Assembly (NCBI GenBank): GCA_003971905.1
Contig: RSEE01000010.1
Span: 248,001 to 312,000, forward strand
Length of the DNA: 64,000 nt
Reading direction: 5' to 3'
Source of the DNA: Moniliella sp. 'wahieum'
Lineage: Eukaryota
The notes beneath the pieces were generated by a model. It made no database searches and was not told the DNA's origin. It worked only from the letters and a program-made list of their open reading frames with translations. This document shows positions 379 to 61,994 of this stretch, piece by piece. Within the stretch, counting starts at the first letter, position 1. Each line of letters opens with the position of its first letter. The translations under genes were made by a program, and so were the position numbers.

Positions 379-1545
379 GGTGCGATTCATTGGCAATGGC
401 CTGTGACATGTGACATGTGACACATGACATGTGATCGTGCCGTGGGTCGTCTTGCCCGTGTTACCAAGGCCCCCTAGCTCAATGCATGCATCTCTCAATT
501 GTCCTTTGTTGCTCAACTCACCCCCTGGACGGGAACGTCATCTTCGACGTTTAAATAGGCCATAGGGCAACCCTTGCTGGTTGAGCGGGCCCACTGGCCA
601 GTCAAAACTCACTCAGAACACAGAACTTCAGGGGCCGCGGCTTGCGCTTTAAGCTTAACCGGTAACCGGTAACCATTGACCAGCTTGACCGGCCGTTGAA
701 ATACATGTAGGGCCTATACGCTTAGGACGGGAACGCCTCGCCCTTAAACTCTTAAATTGCTTGCACTTCCCCTCTGCACGGAACGGAACGCATGAACGTC
801 CTGAACGCACGGCACGAGCGCCGCCGATGGTGTGTGCTTCCATGCGGATATCAGGGTTGATCATTGATCAGGAGTTGGGTTGTTACATGTTACAAGCTGA
901 GACCCGAGGCTCGGGCCCGAAGACACGAGTTGTTTCGATGAGCCCTCTCCGCAACCGCTTGCGTGTAATGTGTAACGTGTACGGGACACAAAACGTATCT
1001 CAGATCTCAAGTCTACAGCGGGCGATGCTCGATGCAGTCTTTGGCAAATCAAAACGTATCCTGGCAGTGGCACGACGAGAGGGAAGATCGGTGATCCGTG
1101 ATCCGTGATCCGTGATCAATGATCAGTGATCGATAATGAGATCCTGCTTAGGCAGAGAGGAGGGCAACGACAAAAAGACAGAGACAACAAGAGCACAAAG
1201 CCACCACACAGCACACACCACACAGCAAGGGATGGTCTGCCAACGACCGAGGGCAGGGTGCGCCACGACTGGTAAGAGGTTGGAACGTGTCAGGGCGAGG
1301 GCGAGCGATAAGGAAGACAGAGCAGGTATCAGATCGCAGATCGCAGGGGGCACACAGGACCGGCACTTCTGGCACGACGACGCACGACGCACGACGCACG
1401 ACGCGGACGCGGGACGAGGCAAGGTACGCAAGGTACCGAGACCAAGCAAGATAACTGGTACCTGGTGCCCGGTACCTGGTAACTGGTAAGGTAAGGCGCA
1501 AGGCGGGATGGCAGGGCAAGACGCAAGACGCACGCAGCCAATCGA

Positions 1546-4500
1546 TTATACGCGGGAAGCTTGGGGTGGTTTGTGGATCGATTCTGGGGCCGGATGGTCG
1601 CGTAACCGATGAGCAAACTTAGCTTTAGCCTTGAGCTGCAGGCGCATCGGGACTGCTTGCGCTTGCGCTTGCATTTCCATCTCGTCCTTCTCCACAGCGA
1701 CGACGCTCGAGGTGGAAGGGGTGGGACTGGATGCGATGATGGGGCTCGAGGAAACGCTGGGTTGAGGCTCGGTACTTCCAGTCAGGGGTACGGGTACGGG
1801 TTCGGGGACAAGTTCTTCGTCAATGTCGCGAATCGCAGGCCAGGTAGTTAGCTTGGGCTCGGAGCTGGGTGATGCTGTGGGTACCGGGTCCGAGGTAGCC
1901 AGTACTTCGCTCACGTCCTCGTCCGATTCCGGCCGCAAAAGCGCATGCGTCTCAAGTGCGCGCGGGATAATCGGACCAAGGTCAATGTCCGATTCGGGTT
2001 CGTCCAAGTCGGACGCATCGGAACCGTCATCGGCCGTATCATCCCCATTCCTCCTCCTCCTCCAACGCGTCGTGCAAGTCCCATGGCCACACTGCACCAG
2101 CGAGAAGCGCAGATCGTGTCGCTGCCTCGTCCGTTTCCGTCGCCGGGACAGGAGGAGCAGACGCAGGCGCCTTAAACCAGGCGACAACGCCAATAAACTT
2201 GTACAAGTTGCGTGAGGGTGTCCGCAGCGTTTCGGTTCGCAATGCTTTCAGTCGATCCTTAGTCTCCTTTGCGCGTCGCGCCAACGACTCCCCCGCCATC
2301 GGCTCGGAACCAGGAGGACGCAGAGCAACCGAACTGGCCATCGGCAGCGTCGTGACCCCGATTCGTTGGCAGCGCAGCTCTACATCCGAGAACTTGACGC
2401 TCCATATGTCCCGCTTACTACCCAACGTGGGTGTCTTGCCCGCCCCACTATCAGACGTCAAGAAGGAGCCCAATAGACCTTGACCCAACGCAGAGAGAAT
2501 GCCTCCACCGCTCGAAGACGGGGCAGAGGGACCTGGGAGACTGTCTTCCCTCGTGCGCAAGACACCAGGCACAGGATGATCGAGCAGATCAGACAAGCGC
2601 CGGAAGGAGCGCTTGGTCTTGATCGTTGATCGTAACTGGGTTTGTAAGCTGCTCGTGGCCGTAGTGGAGCTGGAGGGAGAAGGGATTGGATTGGAGTCGG
2701 GCCGGGGTGGAACGGCAGATGTGGAGGATGCGGTGGACTCGGTCCGGGAAGAATGATAAACGGGGGTCTCAGTAACCAACGTCCGCGTTTGAGACGGCTT
2801 GAGCAGCTTGCGGTCCGTGATGCCCTCGATCCGGGCCATGGCATCCAATGTGGCATCCAACGCGTCGGCCGAAACTTTTTGGGCTTGGACCTTACGCACC
2901 AGAGCCTCAATGCCAGCAACCATGTCGACCGTCGCTTCAAACTCGGAAGTGCTGGGGTCGGTTTGAAAAAGTAGATTTTGAGCCAAAAAGGGTATTTGAG
3001 CAAGCGTTGTAACGGTCGAGCCAGCGCAACCGAGAGACTAGGCACGGTACTAGAAGAGATCCCGTTGGGACTGCCAGGAACAGCGGCCCGACGTGAATCC
3101 GACGCAGCGCCTTCCAGCTTTGCTACCGCCCGACCCAACAGTACGGTATCTGCCAACGCTTGGGCTTCCTTGCGGAGAGTCTTGCCCCGTAACGCACGAG
3201 CCATTAGGCGCGCTTCGTCGAGCTGGGTCAGGGCAGCGCCAAGGGAGGCGGCGTAGGTGGCGTAGGCGTCCAAGAGGGCGTGGGCATGTGAGGCAACACA
3301 TCGGCTAAAGAGCGAACAAGGGGGTACTGTGATTCATACCGTTGTCGCAACGCATTGGCAAGGGACGTATGCACAGCCACCAGTCCCTCTGGTCCAGAGA
3401 TGGCTTCCAGTACAGATCGCACTGCAGGTGGCAGGGGCACGGCAATACCCAGTTCGAATGGGTCCTTGGGTGCCCGTGCTTGGGATGAGCGGCCTGCAAG
3501 TTTTTTGGGCTCGGTTTTGTCATTGGAGGTAGCAGATCCTGCCGATTTTCGACCGAAAAGGCGTTTTCCACTGGGGGCGGAAGTCGTTTGGGACTGGGAC
3601 TGGGCTGAGGTTCCTTCGGGGGTGAGGAAGCATGCTGGAGCTGGGTGAAGCGACGAGGATGAAGAAGAAAGAGAATGTACATGTCCTGGGCACGAAGAAG
3701 TTCGTCGACGTGCCTGAAGAAGAGCAAATATACCGATCAGTACATTGGGTCATGGCAGGCACACACTGCGGAGGGGGGAGGGGGGCTTAAAAACGTACCG
3801 CTGTTCACTTGCAACAATTTCCCAGAGCACTTCTTGCCGCGTTCGTTCGCGCGTGCCGATGTTCATGACAAGTTCGGCGTTGGTGATATTGGCCCATGTA
3901 GCACCCATTGAGGGAGCGCCCGTATCGGAGAAAAGGCCAAAGGGGGAAGTCGAATTCATGGTGGCCAGTGTGGTAGTGCTGGGAGCCAAAGAGCCAACCA
4001 AACTGGATGCACTGCGACGTGCACTGGGAAGGCCGCCTAGGCCACCAGTGGCGGAGGAATGGGGGCCGGAAGAAGGCGGTGTCTGGGCATGATCAGGAGT
4101 CGAGAGCCTTCTTCGGGTGGGAGGCGGTGGGTGTGGGGGGAATATGGGGTGGCTCGTAGCGTGTGCCGGAGGCCGGCGCGGAGAGAGAGAGGGAGGGGAG
4201 TAAGATGGAGGTGAAGCGACAAAGGGGACAGTGTTGGTGTCATTGACCTGTTTCGCGCGTGCATGCGAAGGAGCCGGTGGAGGTACAGAGCGAGGGCCTG
4301 TACGGCTGGCATCGGAAGGGGAGGAAAGCACGGTGGTGGGCGCTGAGGAAGGGCGACAGATGCGCGTGTGAAGGGGGCGGATCAGCGGGTGTGGATGGAG
4401 CTGGAGGCGCTGGGGCTGGAGACGCTGGAGCAGAAGCGGGGAGTGAAGCGGGTGGATGAGAGGGTGTTGCTGAAGCTGGAGGCGCTGGAGCAGAAGCAGG

Positions 4501-4781: not shown

Positions 4782-4822
4782 GGTGGTGGTGGTGTGGTGG
4801 TGGTGGTGGTGGTGGTGGTGGT
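4781..4822. repeat. (GGT)n / (ACC)n microsatellite immediately upstream of the RhoGEF start
   Basis: Directly visible imperfect trinucleotide run. Confidence 0.9.
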
Positions 4823-5331
4823 GCGCGTGCGGCCTGCTGGCGGCGAGAAGCGGGCGGCGGTGTGCCGAGGGTTAGCGCGCCGACGCAGCCCAGGCGCCCC
4901 TTGCCGCTGCGGCAGGCGGCCGGCGCGTCGCTTGAAGCTTGAAGCTGCAAGGATCAAGCTCCAGTCGCTTCAATCGCGATCGGCGCCCAGCAGCCCAGCA
5001 CAGGCGAGCATGCAGCCTGCATGCTGCTTGCGCCGGACGTTGGCCGCACAGCTTACCGCCCCTTGCTGCACCCTCGCCGTGTCACATGTCACAGCCCTCG
5101 CCCCAGCGCACCCACATGGGCGCTTAGCTCAGCAGCCACCGCCCCCCACCGCCCACCCACCACCGCATCACCTGTGGCATGTGGCATGCCCGCCCGCGTC
5201 CCAGCGCGGAATCCGTCGCGGAATTGCTGTCTCCCTGGCGCCGCCTCGCCGCCCCTCCACTGGCCTGCCCTCCACGCCCCTCGCAGCCGCCTCCGACATC
5301 GTGCCCGCCGCCCCGCCCACCACCACCACCA

Positions 5332-6073: not shown

Positions 6074-7376
6074 TGCATGCGTCGTGCTCCTTAGCTTGAC
6101 CTCCAAGTCGCAGATCCTATATCGGTCATCATGCATCGCATGCATGCGGCATGCTCGCCTGCTGTTCCTCCTCCCTCTCCCCCTCCCCCTCTCCCTCTCC
6201 CTCTCCCATTTGAGAAGGCAAATGTGTGTTTGTATCTAATCTGTACGTCCACGAACAAAAAGAAAATAAGCTCCCACCAGTTGTGTGTGTCTGGCGGTGA
6301 AAGGATGTGAAAGGAGGTAGCCGCCTGCCGCTGGGTCACGTCCTTCTGCCCGATAAGATCGAGAAGGCCCCATTTCCTTGTCCCGATGTCGCACGCTCTG
6401 CACGTGCCCCCTCTCTGGAACGGGTAGAAATCCATGTGCGCGACCAGACTGTCATGCATGTCATCACTATTGCATCGGAATCGGAATCTGAATATGCATA
6501 CGACCAGCCCAGCCGCACGTGGGGGGGCACTAGGGCGGCCGAAGGGGAAGGCGCTGAGGCTGGGGCGGCTGGGGAGGCCGGCAATGTGGAGATGGCAGAC
6601 AGAACCTGACTGAGATGCGCGACATACTTACTGATGGGGCGGAGTGTCGCGCTTGATATTGATCTGCTGTTGGGTGCGTGCAAAATGGGAACGTGGGGAG
6701 AGCGGACACTGCCTCTGTGCGTGGGATCGTTGAAAGGACGGGCGGCAAGCGGTATTTCTCCTCCGAGGACAGCACGAGCCCTGAGGCCTCAGGGCCTCAC
6801 AGGCCTCATCCGACCAGAACGCCTCTCGGCACTTTTGAGATCTGCCACGAGCGCCACCACTACCGCCACAGTGCCCACGTCGAACGTCGAACGTGGGTTG
6901 TGTCTTGGGCGTCAAGCTCTCTGCCAGTGGACACCCTCGCTGCAGTTACTAGTTACTAGTTATCGTATCTCAGATCGCATGGCCCGTGCACACGTTTCTT
7001 CTCGCTACCGGCTCCACCCGCTACCCGGCTGTTGTCCGCACGCGCAACCGAGACGCAGTGGTCCTTGCTGCATGTACCACAGCCCGTCGACAGGGGTCCT
7101 GCCCCATTGGTTTGCATCACAGACGGGCGGATAGGCGTGGTAGGTGGGGGGATACGAAGGTAGAGGCGTGCGTGGCTGTGAAACATGCGTACGATCCCCT
7201 CCCCACTCTTTCCTGCTTCGTCTTGCCGGCCCGCACACCGGAAGAGTCAACGGCAAGGTTCTCCATGCCAATGCAATGACCACGTGCTGGGCCTTTGATC
7301 CCACTTAAAGTCCATCCCCTCGTCCTCATGCCAGCCTTGACCGTCCTCTGTTCTCGCCTCTAACCCCATCAGCACG

Positions 7377-9825: not shown

Positions 9826-12800
9826 TCACCTCTTTTTGCCAATTTCGGCCCACAAGAGTGCTAGTGACTTCATCGGGCCAGTCCTCTCCTGTCGAAGGGA
9901 CCTGGAGCGTTGACCGACCGAAGACCCCCCCCTCCCCCTTCCCTCCCGTATACGCGCCAATTAACCCACACACATAGCAATGCCTTTGCTAAATCTGCCA
10001 TAGTAGGACTGTGCTGGCAATTATACAGTCGATGTTTATATCGCGTATTAGACCGTCGCGGGTGCATGCCAGATGAGACCTGTGCTGAATGGCGACCTGC
10101 TTGCGACATGGAGAGGTGTATAAATATAACCCCCAATCCTGATCCCCCCCCCCCCCCCGCGTTTCCATTGCTGGAATAATGGCACCATATCCCTCGTCCT
10201 CAGCAAACACAGTCAAGCATCTGTGGGGAGTGCAGTCCAACGCCAATAAGTACACCAGTTCAAGATGTCCAATAAGTAAGGAGAACCCCACCAAACTATA
10301 TTTTCCTGCCACCAATATCCCCAACCTGAAGCTTATTGGGGCTATTATGTACTCCTCGCGCTGGTGAGCCTCAGCACGCCGCACACGCCTCTGCAAAATC
10401 ACGGTTTGGACGATCTATATTTCTGTTGTGCTGTCAGCGTCATCACGCATGCCGCTGATCGATCTGATCCCACACACGCCTCGCGCCTCGCCCTGTTCTA
10501 CCCGACTCTCCCCTATGTTCTGCCCCCCAACGGGCTCCTCTCTTGGAATAGACTCATCGTCTTCTCTCTCTCTCCTCTCTCTCTCCTTCTCTCTTTCACA
10601 CAAGTGTGCTCTTATTCTTTCTCTCCGAGCAGCTCTTTTCAGAGCTTCGCATACGCCCCAGGCAGCAGAAACAGAAAATAGAGAGAAGAGGCCAGGGGAA
10701 AACCCAGACATGAGAAGGAATCTCGGTCGTGTCGGAAAAGGAGATGGGAATGCGAGGTTGAAGCTTAAGCTTGAGCTTAAGCGTGAGCTTGAGGTTGAGC
10801 TTGAGCTTGAAAAAGTAACGCCAATTTTACTCGCCCCTGCCATGCATGGGACATGTACACAAACACACTGTCTCGGGGCTCTGCCAGCTGGGATGCATGG
10901 GAGGTGGCATGTGCGTGACACGCACGCTCTGAGACACGAGATTCGGAGGGAGCCTGCGCTGTGCAGCCGGGGGCAGCCTGTCGGGCGTGCCGCGTGGTGC
11001 AGGGAGCCCCTGGGCCGGTGGACTGCACCAGACTGACCGGTGACCACGTACTCAGTCTGAACCCTACCCCGCTGCAGAGCGCTGGCGCCGGCGGAACATC
11101 TGCGTCCGACAAGGCGTGCATAGCCTGTGCTGTGCAACGCAGCTTCAACATTGCAAGTCACGTCACGCGTCACATGTCACAGCCTGGCGGCGACGGCAAG
11201 CGTGTACACTTAAAGTGCACCCTACCCGATGCATGACTCCATCCTGAGGCCTGACACTGCGTACTACTCAGTGAGTTACTCATGCCACATGCCACTTGTC
11301 TCACCTGCCACATCCCATCCAGTACTCAGTACTCAGTAGCTGTTGTCGTACGTATGTATTTCTGTCGTATCAATATCATCAATCATCTGCGGGGAGCGGT
11401 GCGAAAGGTTGGTTTTGTTGTTGCGTTGACTCACCTCCTTGTTCTCAGCACTGCCTCGACCTCCAACAGCCTGCAAGGGTGGTAATTGGGAAAGTCGGCC
11501 GGGCCAGCAAGGGGCCAGACAGACACGAAGAACAGCAATGCTTATATTGACCCCAAATCATTCTGGGAAGGATTTTCCATTCTTTGTGTAATGGGAAAGA
11601 GAAGGAGAGGGAAAGGTCCACACTTGTTTTCTTGTCATGCTTTTTTATTCTGTCCAGTTGATACAGTTGCTACATGCCGAGACTGTACATATGATGTGGG
11701 CATGGACAGCAGAGGGTGTTACAAATTGTAGGAGAATCGATTTCACAGGCATCATTAATTGATGATCTGAATGATAGTTCCGTTCCCCCCCTCAAAACGT
11801 GTTCGGTCCCGCAGGCCTTCAACAAGCTTCAAGTTTCGCAGGCCTTGCGGGTTGAGATCAACGCTGAGATCTGAGAAGCCCCACTAGAGCCTCTGAAGAT
11901 ACGCACAGCAGATGGGGCACTGGTTGAACCCATGACAAATGTAGATCGCTATCCTGCTATAGCGCCCGCCATCATCATAACTTTCCAGAGGGTCATCATG
12001 CATCACACAAGTGGAGCTACTAACATTTGAGAAGCTAAATGCAGCTGTGACATGTGACAACAAGCAGCTGGGGTTGTAACAGATTTAACGGTGCCCGAAG
12101 AGAAGAGGTTGCTGTGTTGTTGACGCGCAGAGATCGAGCATTTGGCGGGGCTATTCTTATTAGAGTGAGGCCTGAGGGCTCCCTTGACATTCGTGAGCGC
12201 TCAGGCTGACCGGCTCAGCAGCTCAGCCTACTTGTATCTCGTGTAACATGCAAACGGCAATTATGCACGATGCATTTTGGGGCATTGGGCTTGTTGTTGC
12301 CGGTGGCGCAGAGGGACTGACAGGGACTGGCGGGAAGCAGAAGACAAACATGCATCCGTGAGGCACCTGTCAAAAAAGTGGTCTGGGGCAAATTGCATGG
12401 CAGCGGTGTTTCCTGCACAGCCCGGGCAGGGCCTGGCAGGGCCCAGGCTGGCTCAGGCGCTAAGGCGCTCAGGGTGAACCGTGAGCGTGATGCATGATGC
12501 ATGATGGCCACACCTGGCAGCTAGTAAACAAGATTGGTCGTACGCCGTACCGGTGACGCGCGACGCGTGACAGGTAACAAAACAGGGTGATAACTGCATG
12601 TTGTCTGAGACTAAGACCCAAGGCCAAAGATCTAAGAAAAGGCATGTCACGGGTCAGTCACCGATCGCACTGACCGAACGAGAAAGGCACAATTTGCAGT
12701 AAGAGTGCCCCTGTGCCCCAGCCTGAGGTCAGACGGGCAAACGTGGCGCCAAACACCCAGGAACACGCAGCAATAGCTGAGTTGCTGCTATTCTGATTCC

Positions 12801-14434
12801 GATTTGATGATGCAGATGGCAGAAAGAGAGCGCCCCACTTGAAAACACTTCTGGGCGCTCGAGACACTGCGAAAGTCTTACTCTCTGCCGCGGTGACCGG
12901 TGAAGGACTGGTGAAGCGCTGAAGCTGAAGAACATACCCCCACGCACAGCACCCTCTCTTGCTTGTGAATGCGAGCGGGAAGATAGTCTCGATCGCGTCC
13001 GCAGTGTGCAGCCAGCACGCTTGACGAATGCCTACTACAGTCTTATTATAACGCCCCCCCCCCCTTTCCTTCCCCTTGGCGTCTGTTCGGCTCTGGACAA
13101 AAGTTAGGGCTTAGCGCTGCTCAGCGCTCAGTGTGTACATTCTCCCCTCTCCTTCTTACACAGCTCTGCCCTCAGAGATATGCATGAGAATGATTAATGA
13201 GATACCAATGCGCATGCACCTATCATACATCATCCATCACACATCACCTACTATATCCCAGCACGCCCCATCGCTCACCCACTACACTTCTTCCTACTTA
13301 ACCTCCCCCCACACCGTTCACCTTCAGTTCTTCTCAGCCCCCCTTCCCAAACGTCCTGCTCCCCCATGGACCAGTAGCCTTTGCCTGCCCCCACCCTACC
13401 ATCAATCAGCTGAAGCACATCTGTGGGACACCTGCACCGCATCCTCCTCGCCCCACCATCCTTTCTGCTTGCCATTAGCGCTCTGAGATCTGATTCGCAC
13501 TCGCACGCCAGAGCTACCCGAGCCATTTGTGCTGCCTGTCCTCTCTCTGCTCGACCACAATTTCCTCGGGTGCATCGATTCTTCTTCGTATACCCGCTCC
13601 CCGCACAGCAAACCTGAGTGGCCGGACGCAGCAACCGCTTCTGTTCCATTTCCCATTTTCCGTTCTCCACTCTCCATTCTTCCCTCTCCCTCCTCCTCCT
13701 ACCACACTCTCAACATGGGCAGCGTGATCCATGTCCAGGTCTGGATCGTGAGCCAGCACCAAACAACCGCTGTGCCCACGCGCTCGCTCCGCTGGGCAGA
13801 CAATGTGGTACGAAGTGGGATCGTACCGGGCGTTACGTTTTCCGCGTCGGGCAACTCGGGCGAATATGTGGGCGGAAGACGCAAGTTCACTGGCGCAGTT
13901 TGCCATTGCGCTTCTCACCTGACACCAGTGCAGGACCTACACATCTCACCATGTGTGGTCCTTTGACGGGTGGGGCGGCTGCAGAGAAGGGGAGTCCGCT
14001 CCCAACGATCCCAATCTCATGTCCCCCTTCGTCATCCACCCCTACTTTCCCACTTCCTTCTTCCTCTACAACGACTTTCCACGACTTTTGGGCCGACCGA
14101 TGCGTCATCCGACTACGATTCCAGTGTCCATATATGCATATCTCATGGTGCCCACCTCTCACTGCGCATGCATTCTATCTTTCCACACACGGCAACTTGG
14201 GATTCTGGACAACGTGCTGTCTCCTGCACTGCATGCAAACGTACCATCCTCCCTCCCTCCTACAGCAAGAGCGATAGATTAAGTGTGTTTTTATAGGAAT
14301 CTTGTCGAAGTCAAGTGTCTCTCTATAGGACTCTTGCGGAGGACTCTTGTGGGAAGGATGATTTTATCGATTAAAGCACAGACAAAACCAGGAGATAAAT
14401 CAGGTGATTAGCATACGGACAACGTTGCTCAATC

Positions 14435-15384: not shown

Positions 15385-15447
15385 GCCAAGAGCCAAGAGC
15401 CAAGAGCCAAGAGCCAAGAGCCAAGAGCCAAGACCCAAGACCCAAGT
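15385..15447. repeat. (GCCAAGA)7 heptamer tandem repeat plus 2 variant units
   Basis: Directly visible; the same unit recurs x4 at 19143-19170. Confidence 0.95.
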
Positions 15448-17678: not shown

Positions 17679-19499
17679 GAGGATGCGGATGCGGATGGGA
17701 ATGGGGAGGGGGAGGGGGAGGGGTATGGTGCAGAACGGGGCAACACCGTGTGCGGTGGTGCAGGCCCGGCGTTGGCCAGGGGGCGGGCGGAGGGCAGGCA
17801 GTGGAAGCGGGCGGTGGTGGCAGGGAGAACAGAAGCCAACAAAACAACACAACACAATTGGGTGATGGGTGAGCTGGTGAAAGGAGGTGGTGCGCGGGTG
17901 CGAGATGAAGATTTCAGTGGTGAGTGCTGGGTGGGTGAGCTAGTCAGCTGAGCGCGGCAAATGGCGTACCGCAGATTAGTCACTGGTCAAAGTCAACGCA
18001 GCGCTGTGCGCGCTCAGGCCCAGCATTCAACTGAATGTTCAAGTTACGTTCAACATAGACATTGCATTGCACCCGTCGCTGCAACGCACCACCGCATCCA
18101 CAACTCACACGCGTTCTGATCCATATTCAATGCCCCGTTCCTCTCGCCTCGCGCAGCTCCCCCGGTTCCTGCTGGATTCTACGCCGACCGAAACCGATCA
18201 GCACCACGACCGGTATGCCCGCGTCCCACGCGTGCCTACAAGCTTGGCTGGCCGCCTCGCTCTCACTTCTCACATCTCACATCTCACATCTCACTAGTCA
18301 CTGTCTCCCCGCAGCAACCTTGCTATTATCCTGGCAAGGGGAGTACTCAGACTGAGTCCTCACTGAGTGCTTACTAGGATTGGGGCCCACCCGCCCTCTG
18401 TCCACCACCACCTGCCTCCCCTGGTCCGCCCGACGCCCCAGGTTGCCAGAGCAACGGGCAACAGACAGAGACGACACGATAACCACATTCCGCCCACTTC
18501 CTACCCAGGTGCAGTTGCGCTGATTAATGATCGATGATCGATGGATCCCATTTCTCATTTCAGTTAGTTGTTCGATCAATATCAATCTTCAGATCTCAGA
18601 TTACATAACCGGTTACCGCTCACTTGCTTGTGTGGCGTGCATGGCGCATGATGCATGATGCATGATCGGTGGGAACCTCCCTGGTGGTTGGTACATGGGT
18701 ACGTGGCAGCCTGTAATGTATAGGTTTTGAGATCTCTTAGATCTTAGGTCTTATAGATCTCACATCTTACCGGCGGTACATCATACTTGTGGAAACCACC
18801 TTAGCAAGGGGACGAGACAAAGTGGCTCAGTGGCCAGGCCAAGGGGCTAGGGACTGGGGACGTAGAAGGGAGACCAGAGCGCCAGGCGGGGCATCGCGAC
18901 CCGCTCTCTACGACCACAGGCCACAAGCCACAGGCCACAGGCCACAGGCCACATGGCATAAGGCAGAGGGCATGGGCGTGGGCAAGTCTGTATCGAGCAC
19001 GTTGAGCGCGGTGCAGCCTGCGGGTTCTCCAAACCGTCATCATTACGCGTCGACCATGCATGCACGCGAGACGTGGCTGGGAGAAGGAGGGCCGGGCTAC
19101 GAAGGTCCTAAAGCCAAGGTCCTAACGCCAAAAGGGCTACGGGCCAAGAGCCAAGAGCCAAGAGCCAAGAGCAAAGGGCTACGGGCCAAGGAACAGGGTA
19201 CAAGACCCGACGCACCCGAGGGGCTTGGACCGCAGGGGAGCAAGCGAAACTGACACGATACAGCGAGGTGGGAGATAGACCTAGTAGGAAGGAATGGAAC
19301 CAAGTTCATTGCGCGCTGTTCAAGCTCAATAAGCTCAATAAGCTCAAAAGCTCAAGCACAATGCAGATTGCAGAACAACGGCTAGTAAGTACTACGGATG
19401 CAGCGGGACCTTCCATCTAACGGTGACAGGGGCGAGGGCGACGGGCTCGCGGGGGGAAAAGAGGGCATACAGAGAGAGAGGGGGTAAGCAAGTCATGGG

Positions 19500-24650: not shown

Positions 24651-25946
<1,296 letters not shown>

Positions 25947-27492: not shown

Positions 27493-27580
27493 TCACTTCC
27501 ACTTCCACTTCCACTTCCACTTCCACTTCACGTCCACTTCCACTTCCACTTCCACTCCCACTTCCACTTCCACTTCCACT
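27493..27580. repeat. (TTCCAC)n hexamer microsatellite
   Basis: Directly visible imperfect run upstream of the methyltransferase-like gene. Confidence 0.9.
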
Positions 27581-48047: not shown

Positions 48048-50737
48048 GCTGAAATCGAGTGCAGAAGAAGAGGCGCGGTTCCCAGAGGAGGAGAAATCGC
48101 AGGCGATGGACCGGTCGGCACCGGGGGAGGCCAGTCGGAGGACATGGCTCCTCAAGGGACGGAGACCGGACGAGAGGAAAGACGGCGAACGGGAAAGGGC
48201 GAAAGGCGAGAGATGTAGCGTGCCGGCACACAAAGGGCGCAGAGGTGGCGCAAACGAGCCAGGAAGTGTGGTCTGAAGGGAATACTCACAGGGCTCGGGC
48301 TGAGCCCTGAGGATCAGGTGGAAGGAGGACGGTGGCGATGGCCCCGAGCAAGGAGGCAGAACAGCCGTGCCGGGCAGGCGAGAGAGGACGCAAGTCGGAA
48401 ACAGAACGCGAGTTCTGCAACCTGCAACTCACTGACACTCAGATTCAGAGGCCTCCCTGAGGCCTGAGGCCCTGAGGACGGTAGCCCCAAATGACCCTCG
48501 GCCTCAGGCCGTCAGGCGCCGATATTCAGCAACCATCGGCATCACGCACCCATCATCCATCCCCAATTCGAGCCACTAGCTGCTGCCTGCCAAACGCCCA
48601 GGCATGGCGCTACTGGCAGGGTGACCGGTGACCGGTGATGCATGGCGGTTAGAATGGCCCTTGGGGCGTTTAAGCTTTAGGCGGTAGGTCTAGGCCTTAG
48701 CTTTGGGCCTGCGGCTACGCACTATGGGCCATAGCGTGACTGGCGACCGGTGATCGATGATCCTTCGGGGGCGGGCGGCTGGGCGAACCCGAGGGCCTGG
48801 ACCCTGGTCCGTCGCGCTATAGGCGCAGCCCTCCTCGGGCAAGATCCCCATGGTCATCGGGAGACACTTTGGGCCCGCACTGCTCCAGTGTCAGGCTTCC
48901 TGCGATGGTCAGCTAAGACACACAAAGACATCGTTTAAGACGTTTAAGTGCAGCTCTGGCTATAATGACCGTCATGACCGGTGACCACCTCGTGGCCGTC
49001 ATCTGGCGATCGATGATCAGTACTCAGTAGCTGGCTAGTAACTAGGTAACTATAGTAACTCACTACTAGCTGATCAAGCTGCGACGCGGATGCTTCACAC
49101 CGCCGGTGAGCTAGTCAGTACAGTCAGTGGCTATTATGTACTGAGTGTGTCACGCACCTCATATTAAGTAACCGGTAACTGGTAACCCCGTCGGTACGCG
49201 CCGCTAACGTGGCAATCCTTCCACCAGCCCCATGCCTATACTAGCCCCCACTTCCTTCTACGTTCAACCGTTCGTGCCATTTACATGTTACAGGGCTTCA
49301 AGCTGGGGCAAAAAGTGCTGCTGCGTGTTCGTGTCAAACCAAGTAGGAAACTGTGGCAGTAAAGTCGCCGGCTGGTAATATAGTCCTCTGAGATCTGACT
49401 CCCGCCATTCGCTCTCTCAGATCTCAAATCGGATGTAGCGCGCGTGGAAATGAGCATGGCAGAGACACGTGCAAGAGGTGCGTTTATTGATCCGCATCTC
49501 TCCACTCCGCAGCCCGATCTCTTCATCGTTTACTAGTACCTCTCGGTCGGTGACGTGGGCCTTCTCTCTCACACAAGGTCCTCATGAATCCCTGATTCAT
49601 TTAACCCTTCTATTGGTTCTATTGCTGAGTGAGTAGTCGGTATATACTACAGACCTGTCGTGTGTCGACTATTACTTTTCCCCACACTGTAACCCTCTCC
49701 TCTATTTTGCTGGTTCGTTGAAAACAAACGCGTCAATACAAATTGAGAGTATCCGCCTAAGGATGATGAGCGATCAGTCTGCCTAAAGTGGAGAGTACAC
49801 ACTCATTAAATTGGACGGTGGTGAAAACCTACTCAATATAGTTCAACAGCGACATTTGTCCACCACACCCTACTGTTTTGTGCACTTACACCTAACGAGA
49901 CAAACGGTACCGAATGTATGATGAGTTGGAGGCTAATTTGAATTGGCTACTAGTAGTTGCCAGCGAGCTCGAGGCACTTTGCACTTACCCTTGGTACTCA
50001 GGGGAAGCCTTAGGTGATAGGCATGCCGAGTTGAAAGCACTTATGGGCTCTACCAAATTGCGTTCGTCGCGCCCATATATTGAGTCTCAGTTAGTATGAT
50101 ATGCTCCATGCCAACATCTTTGCCACGATTCCTAACGAGTTGCGCCACTTCTTGAATTCCCTCCATACGCGAAAAGTGTGTGTGTGCTTGGCACCTAAGA
50201 GAATTGTGTCATGTCCGTCAGTACAAATGTAATGCGCCACGGCCTCACAGACGAAAATACACCACGATAGACGTGCCCGAACATATGTCTCGTATGCCCT
50301 CATCATCATATTGTATGTAGATATTTTCTCCTCACCAAAGAGAGGCATTCTTAACATCCTTTTCGATCCATTGTTAGGTTCTTCCCAGAAGTCATCATAT
50401 CAATCCGGTTCCACTCGTTGAGTGCTGAACCGCTGGACAGTTCTCCAGCCTGTTTTGTGGGCGTCACCTTACCAGTACGCCATGTACATTCGCACTTTAC
50501 CCTGTTCACTTTATGCAAGTATCTTCGAGAGAAGTTTAGTTTTCTCTGGACACTGCTACGACTAATAAACGGTTCTCGGCCTGAGAACTTTTGCGGCCTT
50601 TGGCATGCACGTCCCATATCCCACAGGACTTTGAAGCAGCAAGCTTCCTTGCGCACAATTAAAGGAGTTTCTGGACCCATATACACGATGCGTGAGAGAG
50701 GATGGTAGATCAATGTGAGCCGTGAAAATAAGATGCG

Positions 50738-51781: not shown

Positions 51782-52349
51782 CGGCGACGACTCGCTCGCT
51801 TGAACCGTGTGAGCGAGGGGCGTGAGTAGAGAGGAAGGCAGATGTGATACGGCCTGGGACAGTGCGACTTCGAATACGTTGAGGGATGCAGGATGCCGTC
51901 GGGGTCGATTGAGGCAGATGGCTTTTGGTAAGATCTAAGATGAGATGGGCACTAGGCCTTGAGACGACTGAGAGCGATCACTGTGATTGCTGATGGATGT
52001 CGACGATTGCTGATGGCTGATGCGCTGATGGCTGATGCATGATGGAACTGCCTGGCTGGCACATTTCGAAAACTGCAAGCCCTCGGGAGGCACGTGACTA
52101 ATGACTAGGGCATGTGACAGTTATTTGCGACAGCGTCAGCATCGGTGACGGCGCGGCAGTAAAGCTAGCAACATGTAACGTGTAACATGCATATGACTGT
52201 TGGACTGAGGCAACGTGGGACGCAGAACGCTCCTCTTGGTACATGAAACCTGTGTCGATGACAGCTTTACGCGTGTGCGCCGCATCCATTTTAACGTGGA
52301 CGGCTCCTCGAAAAGCTCCGCAGATCTTGTTGAGAAACTTGCTCGACGC

Positions 52350-53357
52350 CGTCACGGGCGGGCGCCGCCAGGGAGCCCGCCCGCGCGGGGGTTAAGGGGG
52401 ACAATCCCTTGGATGTCACGGGCGGACGCCGCCAGGGGCCCGCCCTGGGGGTTTTGGGGTACAATCCCTTAGGCGACGGTAGGTCGACTCACGGTAGTTT
52501 CGGGCTTAGGCTGGTTGGTGCGTCCGAGCGGAGCTAGGGACGAGGAGAGGCCTTTGGTGGGGCGGCTGCACGTGTGGCAAGGCTGCGTCTGCACCGGCTT
52601 GGGCCGTAGTAACGTGTCTGAAGCCTCCGGGACTTAGGGACGGGAGGAGGCAGAGGCGGACAAACACTGCCTCAACAGAGACTGGGAATCGCCGCGACCA
52701 GAGGAGGGCTCGCGCGATTGGACTGACGAAGGGCTGGAGGACGAGGTCGGAGGAGAAGTCGGACGCTAACAAGAGAAGCTGCCTGTACTGGATAAATTGG
52801 CTGGAAACGGGCAGGAGCCGGACAGGATAGACGGGAAGGCGAGAGGATGACGAGAAAGGACGAGAAGGACGAGAAGGACGAGAAGGACGAGAATGGAAGG
52901 TGGGGGAAAAGATCCCCATCAACCAGGGGTACAGGCAGGATCAAAAGGGAAACGGATACAAGAGGGGGTGTAGAAAGGAAACATGTCAAAAGCGGGGTTG
53001 GTCGCCGCAGGCGCGACCGAGAAAGGAAAAGGAAACGGGAACGAGGCGGCAGACGCCGCCACGGCATTGGAAGCTCGGTGGCCTTATTTAGGCCGGCCGA
53101 CGTGGACTTGGGCGGGAGGCGACTGTTGTCGCGCTGAGCATGGCCCTTCGGCCACGATACTTAATTTAGCCAACCATCATCACACTTGGTTGGCCTGCGG
53201 AGCACGCTCTACTGGGCATGTGCGGAGCAGGCGGGCCTTAGCTTGGGTCGGACCATCTCGTGTCCGCCGCAGCCCGTGACATTGGAGGTCTTAAGGCCTA
53301 AGGTAATCTCACGGTAATAGTTACGCGCTTGTGGGCTAATTGGTGGATCCGAGCGGT
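52350..53357. mobile_element. Older related LTR remnant interrupted by the solo LTR (pieces 52350-52413 and 53287 to about 53357)
   Basis: 52350-52410 closely resembles the first ~60 bp of the younger LTR. Similarity resumes after the right TSD (CTCACGGTA, TGGTG..TCCGAGCGG). Confidence 0.75.
52414..53281. mobile_element. Solo LTR, 868 bp, with 5-bp target-site duplication
   Basis: Begins TGTCACGGGC and ends GCCCGTGACA (10-bp perfect inverted termini, TG..CA). Flanked by TTGGA at 52409-52413 and 53282-53286. No coding capacity recognised. Confidence 0.9.
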
Positions 53358-53736: not shown

Positions 53737-56212
53737 ATGACCGAGGCGTCGCCCGAGTTGGGGTTCTATCTCCCGCACCTCCCACCAGATCTGGAGCCCA
53801 TTGCTTCGAGCCTGTACCGTCGCCTACTTTACATTCACGGCTCGCTCATTCCTTCGCTCTTCGCCGGAGAAGATTTGCCGTCGACTGAAGGGGACTTGCA
53901 AGCAGCACTTGCCGAATGCCAGAGAAGCTCAACGAGCTCGACCTTGTGACCGAAGAGTATGATCCGCCTGAAAGTGACCGCATCCATGCTGTGTTTGAGG
54001 CGGGTCAAAGGGACCTGATGCAACTCCGGGAGAGCGCGAAGGAGGCTCTGCTGACAGCCAGACGAACAATCAGGGCCCAGGCGAAAGCCGAGCCTATGTC
54101 TGGGCTAAAGGCGAGGGCTGTCCTGGGTCTTGATACTGGTGGCGCATATCGTTCTCGTAGAACTACTACTGAGTACGTCTCCATTCGAATCTGCGGGCTA
54201 AGCTGACGTATTACAGGGGGGGCGACCAAGTCGCCCAAGCTTCTAGCGATATGACCACTGCACTGGAACGGGCTGTGACGCTCATGTCGGAGGAACTATC
54301 CAAATCGACATTCAGCGCCGAGTTGTTACAAGAATCGAGCGACGCTATGGCTCAACTGGGCGGGTCCTACACCTCTTTTGAGGGCTTGCTGCAGACCTCT
54401 CAAGCAATGATCAAGAAGCTGAAGAGGCAAGACGTGCAAGACCGTATCGCGGTCTTGTTGTCGTTGGCGTTCTTCATCTTTTGTGTGCTTTATATTGTAA
54501 AGCAGCGCCTCGTCGATCCCACATTTGGTGGTATCTTTGGTCTTTTGCAGGGGACGTACAAGTCCGTTAGATGGGGGACGAGCCTCTTCCGCTCGGGCGC
54601 CTCTCCAGAGTCCCGCTCATCCCTTGCTCCTTTAACCAGCGCTGCGTTGACTGGAGGAGCCACCCTGGCCGCTGCCACATCGGCATTTTCGCCCTCCGCC
54701 GCTCTGGTACAGGAAGCGCAGCAGGTTTCACCCCCTGCGCCAACAGGGAACAACTGGATTGATCCCGAAAGGACGGAATGGATTTGGGAACACGATCCGG
54801 TCCTTGATGCGGAATGGGGGGGGGCGATGTGGAGATGACTCCATCTTCGTCTCAATCTCATTCTTCCTGGACGGAAACCCACAAGCCTATCATCGACGAG
54901 AAAAGGGAGGCAACGATTCATGATGATGACAAATATGACTTCCCTTCCCAAGACGGAGTGAGGGACCCAGAAGAATACAACACGGCCCACCTGTTTGAAT
55001 CAGACCGAGGTCATCTTGCATCTCAAAAGAATTCGGTGACCGAACAGACCGTTCCACAGTGGGGGCGGAGGCTACCATTGTTCCATCCCAATCCCAGGAG
55101 TTTGCACCCATGGATGAGTTTATGGAATACAAGCCCCCTGGCTCCGATGGACAGCACAGCCGATTGTTCGTTGAGGAGCCCTCAGCGGAGGTTGTTGACC
55201 CCGCGATAGAGGCGTTTCCCATTGAGGTCACCTCTGACTCTCAGGCGAAAGAACCTCGTTCTGCCCCAGCGGTTCAGGAGCAAGTGGAAGGGGGCTCACT
55301 CGATACGCCTGCCCCTCCGAGAACAGCATCCGAGTCCCAGGTGAAGGTCGAGAACGAGACTAAATATGACCCGATTGCCGAGATGGAGCCTACCTCCAAG
55401 GTGGAACCTATCTCTGAGACGCAGCCCTCCGAAGCAGATGCTACGACCCAGGTGGAAGCTTCTATGGTACCTCTCCTCAGGGAAGAGCCTGACCTTGAGG
55501 CAGTGCCCATTTCCCAGGCTGTGTCTAACCCAGTGCTGGAACCTAGTCAGGAGGAGAAGCCCACACATGAACCACAACCCACTGCTCCAGTTCAAACTCC
55601 TCCAGAAGTGGAGCCTTTCCCAGAAGTGGAGCCAGAGGCGGAACCTACCCCAGAGGTGGAGCCTACCCCAGAGGTGGAGCCTACCCCAGAGGTTGAGCCT
55701 ATCCCAGAGGTTGAGCCTACCCCAGAGGTGGAGCCTATCCCAGAGGTTGAGCCTACCCCAGAGGTGGAGCCTATCCCAGAGGTTGAGCCTACCCCAGAGG
55801 TGGAGCCTACCCCAGATGTTGAGTCTACCCAAGAAGTCGAGACTACTCCAGAGGTTGAGCCTACCCCAGAAGTCGAGACTACTCCAGAGGTGGAGCCTAC
55901 ACCAGAAGTCGAGACTACGCCAGAGGTGGAGCCTACACAGAAGTCGAGACTACGCCAGAGGTGGAGCCTATCCCAGAAGTGGTGCCTGCCCCAGAGGGGG
56001 AACCGACTCTAGAAGCGGAGCCTACCTCGGAGGTGGTGCTTACCCCGGAGGTAGAGCCGATTCCCGAAGATGAGAAAGAGGAATCCCGGAACTTGGAGGT
56101 ACCCGTTTCCCCTGTCTCTCCGACTGATTCTACGGTCGTTCCAGGCGACGCACCTGCAGCTGACCCTGGTGTCCTCCCCGAGGTGGAGTACATTGGCCAC
56201 GAGGACTTGTAA
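53737..56212 (+). CDS. SEC20: Sec20-family ER SNARE with long acidic luminal tail ending HEDL
   Basis: Sec20 coiled-coil + [72 protein letters not shown]. Intron 54173-54216. The downstream frames (54814-55209, 55059-56012, 55961-56212) join via apparent indels and end GHEDL*. Confidence 0.8.
55605..55980 (+). repeat. 18-bp coding minisatellite (GAGCCTACCCCAGAGGTG; EPTPEV units)
   Basis: About 20 tandem EP[T/I]PEV or ETTPEV units visible in both DNA and protein. Confidence 0.95.
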
Positions 56213-59348: not shown

Positions 59349-59818
59349 TTCTCCGGCCTGAGCTACAATAGGCTAATCCCTCCCTTGCGCTGCCGCGTTC
59401 GGGGCCAGTCCTGGCACAGGTGGCCGGGGACCAATGTCTATTGCTCGCCGACGTAAAGGACATTTGATCCGACTTATCGACTTATCTTTGCCCTGGGTAC
59501 AATAAACACCCAGCGCGCCGATGCAAACTAGCACAGCCGAATGGGGCCTGAGCGCTGAGCCCCTTCCTAAGCCTGAGCTCGAACCCCATAACCATTACCG
59601 AGAGCTTATACTTCCCCGAAGGCTATGCTATCACCACCTCCACACCAAGTGCACAATTGGCGTTGTTCGCCCAGGATAAAGCATTGGTAGGCATCATGAT
59701 GAGTGGGGGCTAGATAGAGGACAGAACGACCTCCCTCTAGGATCTCAAGAGTTTGGCTTGCCGGGTGCGCGGGTAAGGATAAGGGGGGGGGGGGGGGGGA
59801 GGCGGCCGCGGAGAGGGG

Positions 59819-61008: not shown

Positions 61009-61994
61009 GCTGGACGGAAGGCGGTGGAGCAGAAGACTGGGCTGGGAAAGAGTTGAACCATTCACAGCGCCTGGCCTCAGATCATCGATCATGCCTTCGT
61101 CCCCACCGCGGGTGTGCCACGCCTTGCCACGAAGCCAGGGGGCTGAAGTGATTTGAACGTTTGCATTTTGCGCGCCGTCATCCGCTCCCGCCACGCGATT
61201 GTGTGGCAAGGTTGGGTTTTCATGTCACAGTGACATGTCTGCCAGCTATGCAGTCTGCAGGATGGGCGAAGGGCGAAGCGTGTCCGCAGTCCTGCGGTCC
61301 CAGGCTGTCCCCTGTCCGGGCCGGGCAAGCTTTGCGCATCCCCACCCGCCCCGACTGCGAATCCACCGCACGGCACAGCGCCCAGGTATGCGGCAAACGC
61401 GTGGCCCGCCATGCTCGCTCGCCTGAGCTCAGCTCAGGCGCTCATCCGCCGTTTGCCAGCAGCGTCACGGCACTCTTAGGTAATCCCACACCGAGTCGGG
61501 CCAAGACGAGTAGATCCAAGTGGGCCAGGGGCCAAACCACCCGCACGTGATTCACAGACTGCCATTCTCGCTTGGGGCTCAGGCGATAAGCTCCTTCAAG
61601 CTTCAAGCTTCACCACCTGCTCTTCTTTTTGGCCTTAAAACTAGTTCAAACCAGACAAGACCACCTGCCGCCCCGTTTTGGCGCGAATGGAAAGGGAATA
61701 GTCCTTGCTAAACGCTCGCCGGCGTTAAACGTTAACCGGTAACCGGTAACCCCCTCCCTTCCTCCCTGTGCATGAGACCCATGATGCATGACGGCGCCAG
61801 TGCCCACCTCGCCTTCCCAGCGCCAAGTATAGGGCGAGCCCCACTGAGCGTATCCAAAAGATGGCGAGACACACTCATACCGACGGCACATTGAACCCTG
61901 CGTCGAGCATCCACCGTGCAGATAGATGGGGATGGAAGCCTTCCCTCTCAAAGCCTGACCCGTGTCCACTCTTTTGAGCCATCACCGGGTGGCT

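Follow-up and report, generated by a model that had tools for sequence, protein, structure and literature searches.

Stereotyped 7-bp insertions at TNA sites in intergenic DNA of Moniliella sp. 'wahieum', probable footprints of transposon excision

Intergenic DNA of the smut-related fungus Moniliella sp. 'wahieum' carries stereotyped insertions of 7 bp at sites of the form nnTNAnn, by which TNAxy is converted to TNAxy-y'x'-TNAxy, or to the mirror form. The window, i.e. the whole stretch that was analysed, comprises 64,000 nucleotides (GCA_003971905.1, contig RSEE01000010.1, forward strand 248,001-312,000; coordinates below count from its first letter), and contains 61 such loci representing 74 events, a density of about 1 per kb. 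These TNA scars are probably, with a likelihood of about 60%, the footprints left by excision of a cut-and-paste DNA transposon located outside the window.

A preliminary description of this DNA had reported tandem arrays of hexamer palindromes that begin with A and end with T, each followed by one base. All of the arrays cited were found at, or a few bases from, their reported positions, with the qualification that the ATTAAT-G array placed at 18523 is just one TGA-TTAA-TGA unit without flank duplication. Exact tandems of at least 14 bp were counted in the window and in 100 dinucleotide-preserving shuffles, revealing 63 period-7 tandems against a shuffled mean of 3.43 (maximum 7). Tandems with a hexamer-palindrome rotation numbered 28 (0.39 in shuffles), and those composed of an A-NNNN-T palindrome plus one base numbered 27 (0.09 in shuffles), as opposed to 0, 0 and 1 for palindromes beginning with C, G and T, the sole T-initial case being TGATCA-T at 857-870. 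Tandems of period 5 (90 versus 53 in shuffles), 6 (83 versus 13.6, with a palindromic unit in 1 only), 8 (9 versus 1.03) and 9 (8 versus 0.2) were counted also. The comparisons that had been proposed, with shuffled sequence, with other initial bases and with periods 6 and 8, thus bear out the period-7 A-NNNN-T palindromic arrays, which are confirmed as a real feature. Similarly, 13 of the 16 possible A....T cores are present, and AAATTT, AATATT and ATATAT are absent, as described. The inference of a common generator also stands, since independent microsatellites cannot account for a period, a symmetry and end bases that the arrays have in common. Sorting of the 63 period-7 arrays by eye showed that 25 have no TNA, among them the longest of all, GCCAAGA x7, and five with at least three units; these 25 lie outside the reach of a model based on excision at TNA.

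The elementary event at a single TNA consists of 5 copied and 2 mirrored bases, giving an incomplete, 12-nt structure (5+2+5). A search for any 5-mer repeated across two mirrored bases returned 155 matches, 99 of which start with T-N-A (0.25 expected from shuffles), with every other class contributing 10 or fewer. Scar array lengths peak at 12 and 19 bp, that is, at 5+7n. The cores may be any 4 nt, T and A being the only constant bases, and direct copies of the centre base N outnumber inverted ones, 75 junctions to 4. TNA pairs with the same N at +7 are right-mirrored in 28 cases, left-mirrored in 23 and both in 24 (right versus left, p 0.58), whereas the control centres ANT, CNG and GNC gave 0-2 each. 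Single incomplete units make up 50 of the 61 loci; the other 11 are multi-hit, versus about 9 expected for independent hits at the local rate of 61 per 811 TNA sites. Palindromic targets are weakly enriched (13/61 scar loci versus 87/750, p 0.04). Around 40 more loci are one change off the TNA rule and look like products of neutral decay. The scars, together with related arrays, are as follows (none is assigned a strand).

402-422: TNA scar array, core ACATGT, 2 events
656-674: scar array, core ACCGGT, 2 events (19 bp = 5+7+7)
881-894: scar, core ACATGT, 1 event, palindromic target
998-1009: single scar, core AGATCT
1091-1117: TGA-centred non-palindromic heptamer array (exact 7-bp duplications), then TGATC units with varied 2-nt bridges
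4931-4944: scar, core AAGCTT
5080-5093: scar, core ACATGT
6944-6962: scar array, core ACTAGT, 2 events
11034-11045: single scar, core ACCGGT
11161-11181: chain, cores ACGCGT and ACATGT at one TCA, one event left-mirrored, one right-mirrored
11243-11254: single scar, core AGGCCT
11324-11337: scar, core AGTACT
11865-11876: single scar, core AGATCT
11994-12005: single scar, core ATGCAT
12046-12059: scar, core ACATGT
12166-12177: single scar, core AGGCCT
12488-12506: scar array, core ATGCAT, 2 events
12892-12903: single scar, core ACCGGT
13119-13130: single scar, core AGCGCT
13189-13200: single scar, core ATTAAT
13482-13493: single scar, core AGATCT
18268-18294: TCA-centred non-palindromic heptamer array, exact 7-bp duplications
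18291-18302: single scar, core ACTAGT
18528-18539: single scar, core ATCGAT
18589-18600: single scar, core AGATCT
18647-18665: scar array, core ATGCAT, 2 events
18735-18746: single scar, core AGATCT
18914-18953: array with off-consensus ACA centre, following the 5+2 rule of TNA scars
21978-21989: single scar, core ACGCGT
22020-22038: scar array, core AACGTT, 2 events
22499-22512: scar, core ATCGAT, in array 22495-22516
22568-22581: scar, core ACGCGT
22975-22986: single scar, core AGATCT
26015-26028: scar, core AACGTT
26147-26160: scar, core ATCGAT
26320-26331: single scar, core AGATCT
26522-26533: single scar, core AAGCTT
26681-26692: single scar, core ACCGGT
26830-26855: scar array, core AAGCTT, 3 events
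27124-27137: scar, core ACTAGT
37323-37334: single scar, core ACGCGT, chained with +8 and +9 junctions
40064-40080: scar, core ACCGGT
41843-41854: single scar, core AACGTT
41875-41886: single scar, core AACGTT
42022-42035: scar, core AGGCCT
42082-42093: single scar, core ATTAAT
42207-42218: single scar, core ACGCGT
43002-43013: single scar, core AACGTT
43389-43406: TCA-centred non-palindromic heptamer duplication
48456-48469: scar, core AGGCCT
48620-48638: scar array, core ACCGGT, 2 events
48751-48762: single scar, core ATCGAT
48975-48986: single scar, core ACCGGT
49017-49028: single scar, core AGTACT
49281-49292: single scar, core ACATGT
49387-49398: single scar, core AGATCT
49415-49426: single scar, core AGATCT
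51929-51940: single scar, core AGATCT
52009-52037: TGA-centred non-palindromic heptamer, two exact pairs with a +8 junction between
52033-52044: single scar, core ATGCAT, terminal part of chain 52009-52044
53292-53303: single scar, core AGGCCT
59549-59560: single scar, core AGCGCT
61080-61091: single scar, core ATCGAT
61594-61612: scar array, core AAGCTT, 2 events
61724-61751: chain, cores AACGTT then ACCGGT, 3 events
61780-61791: single scar, core ATGCAT

Rarer than the +7 events are +8 and +9 junctions, in which both full 7-mers are intact and 1 or 2 bases have been added. Where full nnTNAnn 7-mers are separated by 1 extra base, this is the mirror base in 6/7 cases versus 10/37 for other centres (p 0.006); where 2 extra bases are present, they are mirrored in 5/8 versus 9/102 (p 0.0007). 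Mirror lengths rank with 2 commonest, 1 next, and 4 or more rare.

12213-12227: +8 junction, full 7-mers separated by 1 non-mirror base
22115-22129: +8 junction, non-palindromic full 7-mer twice, 1 mirrored base between
22674-22689: +9 junction, full 7-mer twice, 2 mirrored bases between
23662-23676: +8 junction, 1 mirrored base
26154-26169: +9 junction, 2 mirrored bases, right-flank origin
37313-37327: +8 junction, 1 mirrored base
37328-37343: +9 junction, 2 mirrored bases
48463-48477: +8 junction, 1 mirrored base
48933-48948: +9 junction, non-palindromic 7-mer, 2 mirrored bases, right-flank origin
49113-49128: +9 junction, 2 mirrored bases, left-flank origin
52016-52030: +8 junction, 1 mirrored base, within chain 52009-52044
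59472-59486: +8 junction, 1 mirrored base

There being no gene models for the window, coding DNA was approximated by stop-free ORFs of 200 aa or longer, which together take up 51% of its length. Only 6 of the 61 scar loci fall within these ORFs, close to their edges, versus 31 expected (binomial p 1e-11), in keeping with the scarcity in coding regions noted previously. Scar loci occur in both 3' and 5' intergenic DNA, including a 3'-3' stretch at 379-1548 (orientation inferred from ORFs).

The +7 rule, the direct copying of N and the +8 and +9 junctions point to target duplications of 7 bp and to flank hairpins that were mostly opened 2 nt from the tip, a combination that in turn suggests repeated insertion and excision of a transposon. 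Insertion of the element would involve a cut staggered by 7 bp around a central T-N-A (target a-b-T-N-A-x-y), duplicating the 7-mer, and its excision would leave both flanks as covalently closed hairpins with tips exactly at the duplication ends. A host nuclease of the Pso2/Artemis type would then nick both hairpins, usually at 2 nt from their tips, to yield 4-nt self-complementary overhangs, x-y-y'-x' and b'-a'-a-b, of which end joining would retain one and lose the other. The result would be abTNA-xy-y'x'-TNAxy or abTNA-b'a'-ab-TNAxy, longer by 7 bp and with a new A-xyy'x'-T palindrome. Since the new TNA would lie in a palindromic 7-mer, later hits on it would add perfect units, building (A-NNNN-T + N)n arrays. 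Of the three generators suggested in the preliminary description, excision footprints fit best, although the duplicated target appears to be the 7-bp nnTNAnn with TNA at its centre, rather than TNA itself.

Several observations sit less comfortably with the transposon model. When the window was searched for terminal inverted repeats of 14 nt with 7-bp repeats on either side, the only match lay within the scar arrays themselves. No transposase families were seen in Pfam scans of window ORFs, which covered the first 150 (coordinate-sorted, to ~25 kb) and 60 of the other 172 from 322 ORFs of at least 90 aa, as well as 24 stop-to-stop frames. The +11 product with both overhangs kept, which the model predicts, had 0 candidates in the window. 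The enrichment of palindromic targets among scar loci, given above, is weak. Moreover, 74 events in 64 kb imply tens of thousands genome-wide, which is very many for an unseen element and counts against the model.

A transposase-like enzyme with the same action is an alternative maker of the scars. A host enzyme could make 7-nt staggered cuts at nnTNAnn, a domesticated transposase of the hairpin-forming kind being one example, and repair would leave identical scars; the very high scar density and the lack of a visible transposon or transposase in the inverted-repeat search and Pfam scans of the window would suit this explanation. It nevertheless seems unlikely, since insertion (the duplication) followed by excision (the hairpins) is the simplest source of a direct 7-bp duplication combined with mirror bases from hairpins, whereas a nuclease alone would require two separate chemistries at one site, and no candidate gene was identified. 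Somewhat less likely again are replication errors, i.e. template switching in quasi-palindromes followed by polymerase slippage favouring 7-nt units. The arrays are capable of hairpin formation, the 25 of 63 heptamer arrays without TNA, including the five with at least three units, are compatible with slippage, and among long simple repeats those of 7 nt rank first in abundance in many bacteria, where they were ascribed to polymerase slippage (Mrazek 2007, as cited in PMC4679880). However, fold-back copying would invert the centre base, yet 75 junctions retain it and just 4 show the inversion. Together with the restriction of mirroring to 2 bases, this also disfavours the hairpin or template-switch expansion proposed in the preliminary description. 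Furthermore, the elementary event, 5 copied and 2 mirrored bases at one TNA, differs from a unit slip, slippage leaves unexplained both the T-N-A requirement (0-2 at control centres) and the mirrored bases of the +8 and +9 junctions, and the multi-hit frequency agrees with independent hits.

A cis-regulatory or chromatin role under selection, with the arrays bound by a factor that recognises shape or palindromes, is improbable, even if their intergenic location, symmetry and 7-bp phasing, with 3 units spanning about two helical turns, would suit it. The use of 13 of 16 cores with only T and A constant, the predominance of single incomplete 12-nt units (50/61 loci), the ~40 seemingly decayed loci one change off the rule, and the presence of scars in 5' regions and also between 3' gene ends, as at 379-1548 going by its ORFs, all argue against such a factor, including the shape-reading promoter factor suggested earlier. 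An assembly or sequencing artefact is hardly credible. The assembly does carry small indel errors, as illustrated by an essential class II aldolase (1-378) that needs two frame changes in ~160 bp, one at an A run, but homopolymer errors do not yield rule-bound 7-bp insertions with mirrored dinucleotides, and would neither spare long ORFs (6/61 loci versus 31 expected) nor give decayed copies.

The literature search found no description of palindromic heptamer scars at TNA sites, and the heptamer repeats of smut fungi mentioned in the preliminary description were not found in print. The proposed transposon footprints resemble those of Ac/Ds and other hAT elements in plants, S. cerevisiae and Candida albicans, for which PMC5873905 describes persistence of both target-duplication copies after excision, small palindromic (P-nucleotide) insertions derived from flank hairpins, and one or two dominant footprint types per host. 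The duplication is usually 8 bp in hAT, as opposed to 7 bp here, and hAT palindromes are odd, centred on the complement of the element-adjacent base (PMC5873905), whereas TNA scars have even palindromes, their axis falling between y and y', indicating a hairpin tip exactly at the duplication end. In addition, the hAT footprints described there were studied at single loci, whereas TNA scars occur about once per kb and are stacked into arrays. Symmetric hairpins are a feature of V(D)J coding joints and of RAG, Transib and MULE elements, with equal-armed flank hairpins shown for the MULE Muta1 (PMC5499845). Artemis:DNA-PKcs is reported to open exact hairpins mainly 2 nt from the tip, so that the 4-nt overhang is self-complementary and 2 P nucleotides result; opening also occurs at +1 and, rarely, at +3 or +4 (PMC2175297). 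The mirror-length order in TNA scars (2, then 1, then at least 4) agrees with this preference. RAG and Transib duplicate 5 bp and MULEs 8-10 bp, versus 7 bp at TNA scars, and no RAG, Transib or MULE genes were seen in the window by Pfam scans of part of its ORFs. Fungi are not known to have DNA-PKcs. The hairpin opener would thus be Pso2-like, Pso2 being named in PMC5873905.

Basidiomycete transposons with 7-bp duplications are described in PMC12730594, namely hAT7 (Pucciniales, rusts) and Kyakuja (Agaricomycotina, mushrooms), both cut-and-paste DDE families from the same phylum; that source reports neither from Ustilaginomycotina, no target consensus or footprints were noted there for them, and no copy of either was seen in the window. 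Intergenic arrays of 7-bp period, often with T-N-A, are also known from bacteria, as with the TAACTGA direct repeats of Beggiatoaceae and Cyanobacteria (PMC4679880), and metagenome contigs contain at least 121 stretches with three or more ACCGGT+N units. In these arrays, as far as described, one sequence family dominates per genome, unlike the 13 cores of TNA scars, and the repeats are long and exact, without 5+2 single events, which indicates conservation of a word, in contrast to the conserved construction rule of TNA scars. Indeed, a second palindrome core was present in just 4 of the 120 metagenome ACCGGTN loci examined.

Short tandem arrays in which a hexamer palindrome starting with A and ending with T is followed by one spacer base were present at the positions cited in the preliminary description, and comparison with 100 dinucleotide-preserving shuffles showed that this palindromic period-7 feature is real and far above chance. 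Exact period-7 tandems of at least 14 bp numbered 63, against a mean of 3.43 and a maximum of 7 in the shuffles, and those with a hexamer palindrome in some rotation of the unit numbered 28 against 0.39. The bias towards A-initial, T-final palindromes proposed in that description was borne out, both against shuffles (27 arrays against 0.09) and against palindromes with other first bases (C, 0; G, 0; T, 1), as was the use of 13 of the 16 possible A....T cores, AAATTT, AATATT and ATATAT being absent as reported. Among the control periods, period 8 gave 9 tandems (1.0 in shuffles), period 9 gave 8 (0.2) and period 6 gave 83 (13.6), with a palindromic unit in only one of the period-6 tandems. T-N-A is missing from 25 of the 63 heptamer arrays, the longest included, and these may be ordinary slippage repeats, since they exceed shuffles to a degree comparable with the tandems of periods 8 and 9. 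Two arrays of the unit GCCAAGA lie within a short dispersed repeat common to both places, and fall outside the TNA rule:

15385-15433 (stretch also given as 15385-15446): GCCAAGA x7 array, no T-N-A, the longest heptamer array
19143-19172: GCCAAGA x4 array, no T-N-A

The hypothesis tested for the elementary event was a 7-nt insertion composed of five copied and two mirrored bases. A search for any five-base word (W5) followed by the reverse complement of its last two bases and then by W5 again returned 155 matches, against 10.5 in shuffles; W5 had the form T-N-A-x-y in 99 of these, every other class contributed 10 or fewer, and many of the non-TNA matches are alternative registers of the same arrays. 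The exact 12-mer rule TNAxy-y'x'-TNAxy, where primes denote complements, is expected only 0.25 times from shuffles, and its 99 matches fall at 61 loci. Array lengths concentrate at 12 and 19 bp, i.e. 5+7n, and stepwise removal of units resolved 74 events (518 bp), with 50 loci carrying one event, 9 carrying two and 2 carrying three. Period-7 runs with exactly five matched positions numbered 90, of which 17 were right-mirrored and 17 left-mirrored, with approximately 5.6 of each expected. A further 40 loci differ from the rule by one change (51 matches, against 8.45 in shuffles), and are most simply regarded as older decayed scars or minor junction variants.

The symmetry of the event was examined in 214 TNA...TNA pairs spaced 7 bp apart, with mirror and duplication classes counted among pairs having the same centre base.

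Structures of TNA...TNA pairs 7 bp apart (214 pairs; the remainder have differing centre bases and no mirrored structure)
Right-mirrored (TNAxy-y'x'-TNAxy): 28 pairs
Left-mirrored (abTNA-b'a'-abTNA): 23 pairs
Mirrored both ways: 24 pairs
Exact 7-bp duplications, non-palindromic: 7 pairs
Single flank duplicated, bridge not mirrored: 31 pairs
Mirrored bridge alone: 8 pairs
No listed structure, same centre base: 29 pairs
Analogous structures, centre base complemented: 4 pairs

Control centres (ANT, CNG and GNC) yielded between 0 and 2 mirrored structures. Since the centre base is repeated directly in 75 cases and complemented in 4 (p 5e-18), the duplication of the centre base is direct. Two bases only are mirrored, a third being the T itself, and the left- and right-mirrored types are equally frequent (p 0.58); both occur at a single TCA at 11161-11181, indicating that the target is symmetric about N. 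In the dominant scar form five of the seven duplicated bases are kept on one side. The target logo shows T(-1) and A(+1) as fixed and the other positions, N included, as near background, with only a weak G(-2)/C(+2) preference beyond TNA. The 5+2 rule is also followed by the array at 18914-18953, whose centre is ACA, suggesting that targeting is somewhat relaxed. At 1091-1140, TGATC occurs six times at a 7-bp period with two-nucleotide bridges of CG, CG, CG, AA and AG, none being the expected mirror GA; these bridges may represent untemplated or mutated junctions.

The length of the target duplication was established from junctions in which two full nnTNAnn 7-mers are separated by filler bases, and is a new result. 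Matches with 0, 1 and 2 bases between the 7-mers numbered 31, 7 and 8, respectively. The single-nucleotide filler (+8 junctions) complements the adjoining flank base in 6 of 7 cases, against 10 of 37 at other centres (one-sided Fisher p 0.006), and the two-nucleotide filler (+9 junctions) equals y'x' or b'a' in 5 of 8, against 9 of 102 at other centres (p 0.0007). Since several of the 7-mers in these junctions are non-palindromic (e.g. at 22115, 23662 and 48933), the outer two bases are truly duplicated and a 5-bp duplication is insufficient; the target duplication is 7 bp. This '7-mer plus one' structure accounts for seven of the window's nine period-8 tandems, and a chain at 52009-52044 contains, in order, exact, +8, exact and mirrored +7 junctions. 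Mirrors of two bases are the most frequent, followed by one, then by four or more. The junctions thus show what an excision footprint should leave at an empty site, namely both copies of the target duplication, as full 7-mers with 0-2 bases between them, and P-nucleotide-like bases at the join, a mirrored dinucleotide being present at 75 junctions.

We consider it probable, at roughly 0.6, that the arrays are stacks of footprints left by the excision of an unseen element of the hairpin type, whose target is the 7-bp nnTNAnn. Staggered insertion at abTNAxy would duplicate the 7-mer, and excision would leave both flanks as hairpins with their tips exactly at the ends of the duplication. Nicking 2 nt from each tip would then create four-nucleotide self-complementary 3' overhangs, xyy'x' and b'a'ab, and retention of one overhang with loss of the other would give the right- or left-mirrored +7 product. 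A hairpin opened at +1, or one opened at +2 while the opposite flank stays intact, could yield the +8 and +9 forms, and the rare inverted-centre forms could come from openings at +4 or beyond. Where the context is palindromic, the two overhangs would be cohesive, and later hits would for that reason add perfect units. What is new in this scheme is that the overhangs would account for the gain of two bases on one side and the loss of two on the other. Pso2, a protein related to Artemis, is named as the enzyme that opens hairpins in yeasts (PMC5873905).

Independent hits also fit the build-up of the arrays, which is a further new result. Among TNA sites within 300 bp of scars, 61 of 811 (7.5%) have been hit; with independent hits and two TNA sites on offer after one event, about 9 of the 61 loci should have been hit again, and 11 were, so that the TNA-class arrays need no length-dependent expansion. 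Slippage, in which whole units are added to a chance proto-repeat whose sequence is unconstrained, does not fit this class: the rule is specific to TNA, and 50 of the 61 loci consist of one 12-nt 5+2+5 structure each. Arrays of transcription factor sites were set aside on the grounds that there is no conserved recognition sequence, T(-1) and A(+1) alone being fixed across the 13 cores. That diversity of cores within the window also tells against a single-word heptanucleotide family of the bacterial type, with which the fungal arrays have the 7-bp period in common (PMC4679880), whereas the bacterial repeats, like the ACCGGT+N arrays found in metagenomes, keep to one family of words on each contig. 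Three or more ACCGGT+N units stand in at least 121 metagenome stretches, and only 4 of 120 such loci had a second core. Across the 120 loci, period-7 tandems outnumber those of period 8 by 270 to 21, and T-N-A occurs in 73 of 135 non-query arrays. These arrays look like a different, sequence-family phenomenon on bacterial-looking contigs. Several of the loci (L055, at 1929-3573, L038, L057, L036, L082, L039 and others; contig G+C 0.41-0.68) have several intergenic heptamer arrays, mostly of ACCGGTG-related words together with other T-N-A-containing units in up to 11 copies, and L055, the sole metagenome locus viewed for ORFs, has dense bacterial-style ORFs.

P-nucleotide footprints are classic for hAT elements, which usually duplicate 8 bp with a consensus T at position 2 and A at position 7. 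The scars do not fit this hAT-specific pattern: the duplication measures 7 bp and carries T and A at positions 3 and 5. That departure from the canonical hAT footprint is likewise new. In Ac/Ds footprints each palindrome has at its centre the complement of the base beside the element (PMC5873905), whereas the palindromes described here are even (x-y-y'-x') and have no central complemented base. Even palindromes imply a symmetric hairpin. Symmetric hairpins are formed by RAG and Transib. The MULE Muta1 is reported to form a 43+43-nt hairpin (PMC5499845). All three systems are alike in this respect, but their duplications are 5 bp or 8-10 bp as opposed to 7 bp. Duplications of 7 bp are attributed to the basidiomycete elements hAT7 (rusts) and Kyakuja (mushrooms) (PMC12730594).

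The impression that arrays are scarce in coding DNA held when stop-free ORFs of 200 aa or more, together 51% of the window, were used as a coding proxy: 6 of the 61 loci lie within them, all near ORF edges, against 31 expected (p 1e-11). Purifying selection is enough to explain this depletion, because a +7 insertion shifts the reading frame. Scars occur in 3'-3' intergenic DNA, for example at 379-1548 after the aldolase gene (orientation as predicted from ORFs), and also in divergent 5' regions, as at 25.8-27.4 kb and 51.9-54.2 kb; clustering among non-ORF segments is marginal (permutation p 0.067).

No resident element or transposase with a matching duplication length and target was found in the 64-kb window. 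When 14-nt terminal inverted repeats bordered by repeats of 3-9 bp were sought, the single match with 7-bp flanking repeats lay inside the arrays themselves, and counts at other flanking-repeat lengths fall with length as by chance. Pfam scans of 210 of the 322 ORFs of at least 90 aa, together with 24 separate frames, returned no transposase families. The window holds no candidate for a +11 product, in which both overhangs would be kept, and the 15 cases of a TNATNA (+3) product resemble ordinary triplet repeats. It contains no paralogues usable for comparison of filled and empty sites, and no look-alike windows were found in other genomes. Neither a description of this fungal pattern nor the heptamer repeats of smut fungi mentioned in the preliminary description were found in the literature searched.

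If the footprint reading holds, this genome carries approximately one transposon-excision scar per kb, or two per kb outside long ORFs, and no published report of a comparable density was found in the literature searched. Excision footprints could then rank among the main sources of tandem repeats and palindromes arising beside genes, one repair geometry (the opening of hairpins 2 nt from their tip) could dominate in a fungus, and a rare or extinct element could leave a large mutational legacy. The scars would offer thousands of natural repair junctions for the study of hairpin opening and end joining, and an explicit signature for a transposase hunt: a 7-bp duplication, a TNA centre and even palindromes. 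More tentatively, and with the odds slightly against so broad a claim, these observations may reflect a hairpin-forming cut-and-paste system so far undescribed, whether an element or a transposase retained by the host, that recognises a 7-bp nnTNAnn target, forms symmetric hairpins on the flanks and operates in a deep-branching lineage of Ustilaginomycotina, and whose tens of thousands of intergenic P-nucleotide footprints would have generated palindromic heptamer microsatellites de novo and would constitute a natural genome-wide record of fungal hairpin opening and end joining.

The window consists of nuclear DNA from a fungus (57.7% G+C) and contains ordinary eukaryotic genes, among them those for a class II aldolase, a betaine-lipid-synthase-like protein, an aspartyl protease, a protein kinase, an HMG-box protein, a photolyase and Sec20. 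The nearest named relatives of the betaine lipid synthase are from Ustilaginomycotina (Thecaphora, Sporisorium, Pseudozyma, Malassezia and Tilletia); since identity to these is only about 50%, the host looks, from this protein comparison, like a deep-branching smut relative. Two further contigs match at 77% identity. The C-terminus of the class II fructose-bisphosphate aldolase (1-378) has two frame changes within approximately 160 bp, one at an A run near 143 and one near 300, a pattern that suggests small assembly indel errors as opposed to a pseudogene. An inverted repeat at 61995-62210 and 63788-64000 has arms of at least 215 bp that are 77-97% complementary, encloses about 1.6-1.9 kb, including a reading frame for ribosomal protein uL11 at 62600-62896, and continues past the window end in its right arm; no clean 7-bp event separates the arms, the indels being of 6, 4, 4 and 11 bp. 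A CACTTC hexamer array at 27465-27629, with a start-to-start spacing of 12 bp according to the repeat finder, lies where an ORF-rich stretch begins. Finally, an 18-bp tandem repeat of some 20 or more copies at 55578-56096, within the long ORF at 54999-56009, is probably a six-residue coding repeat.
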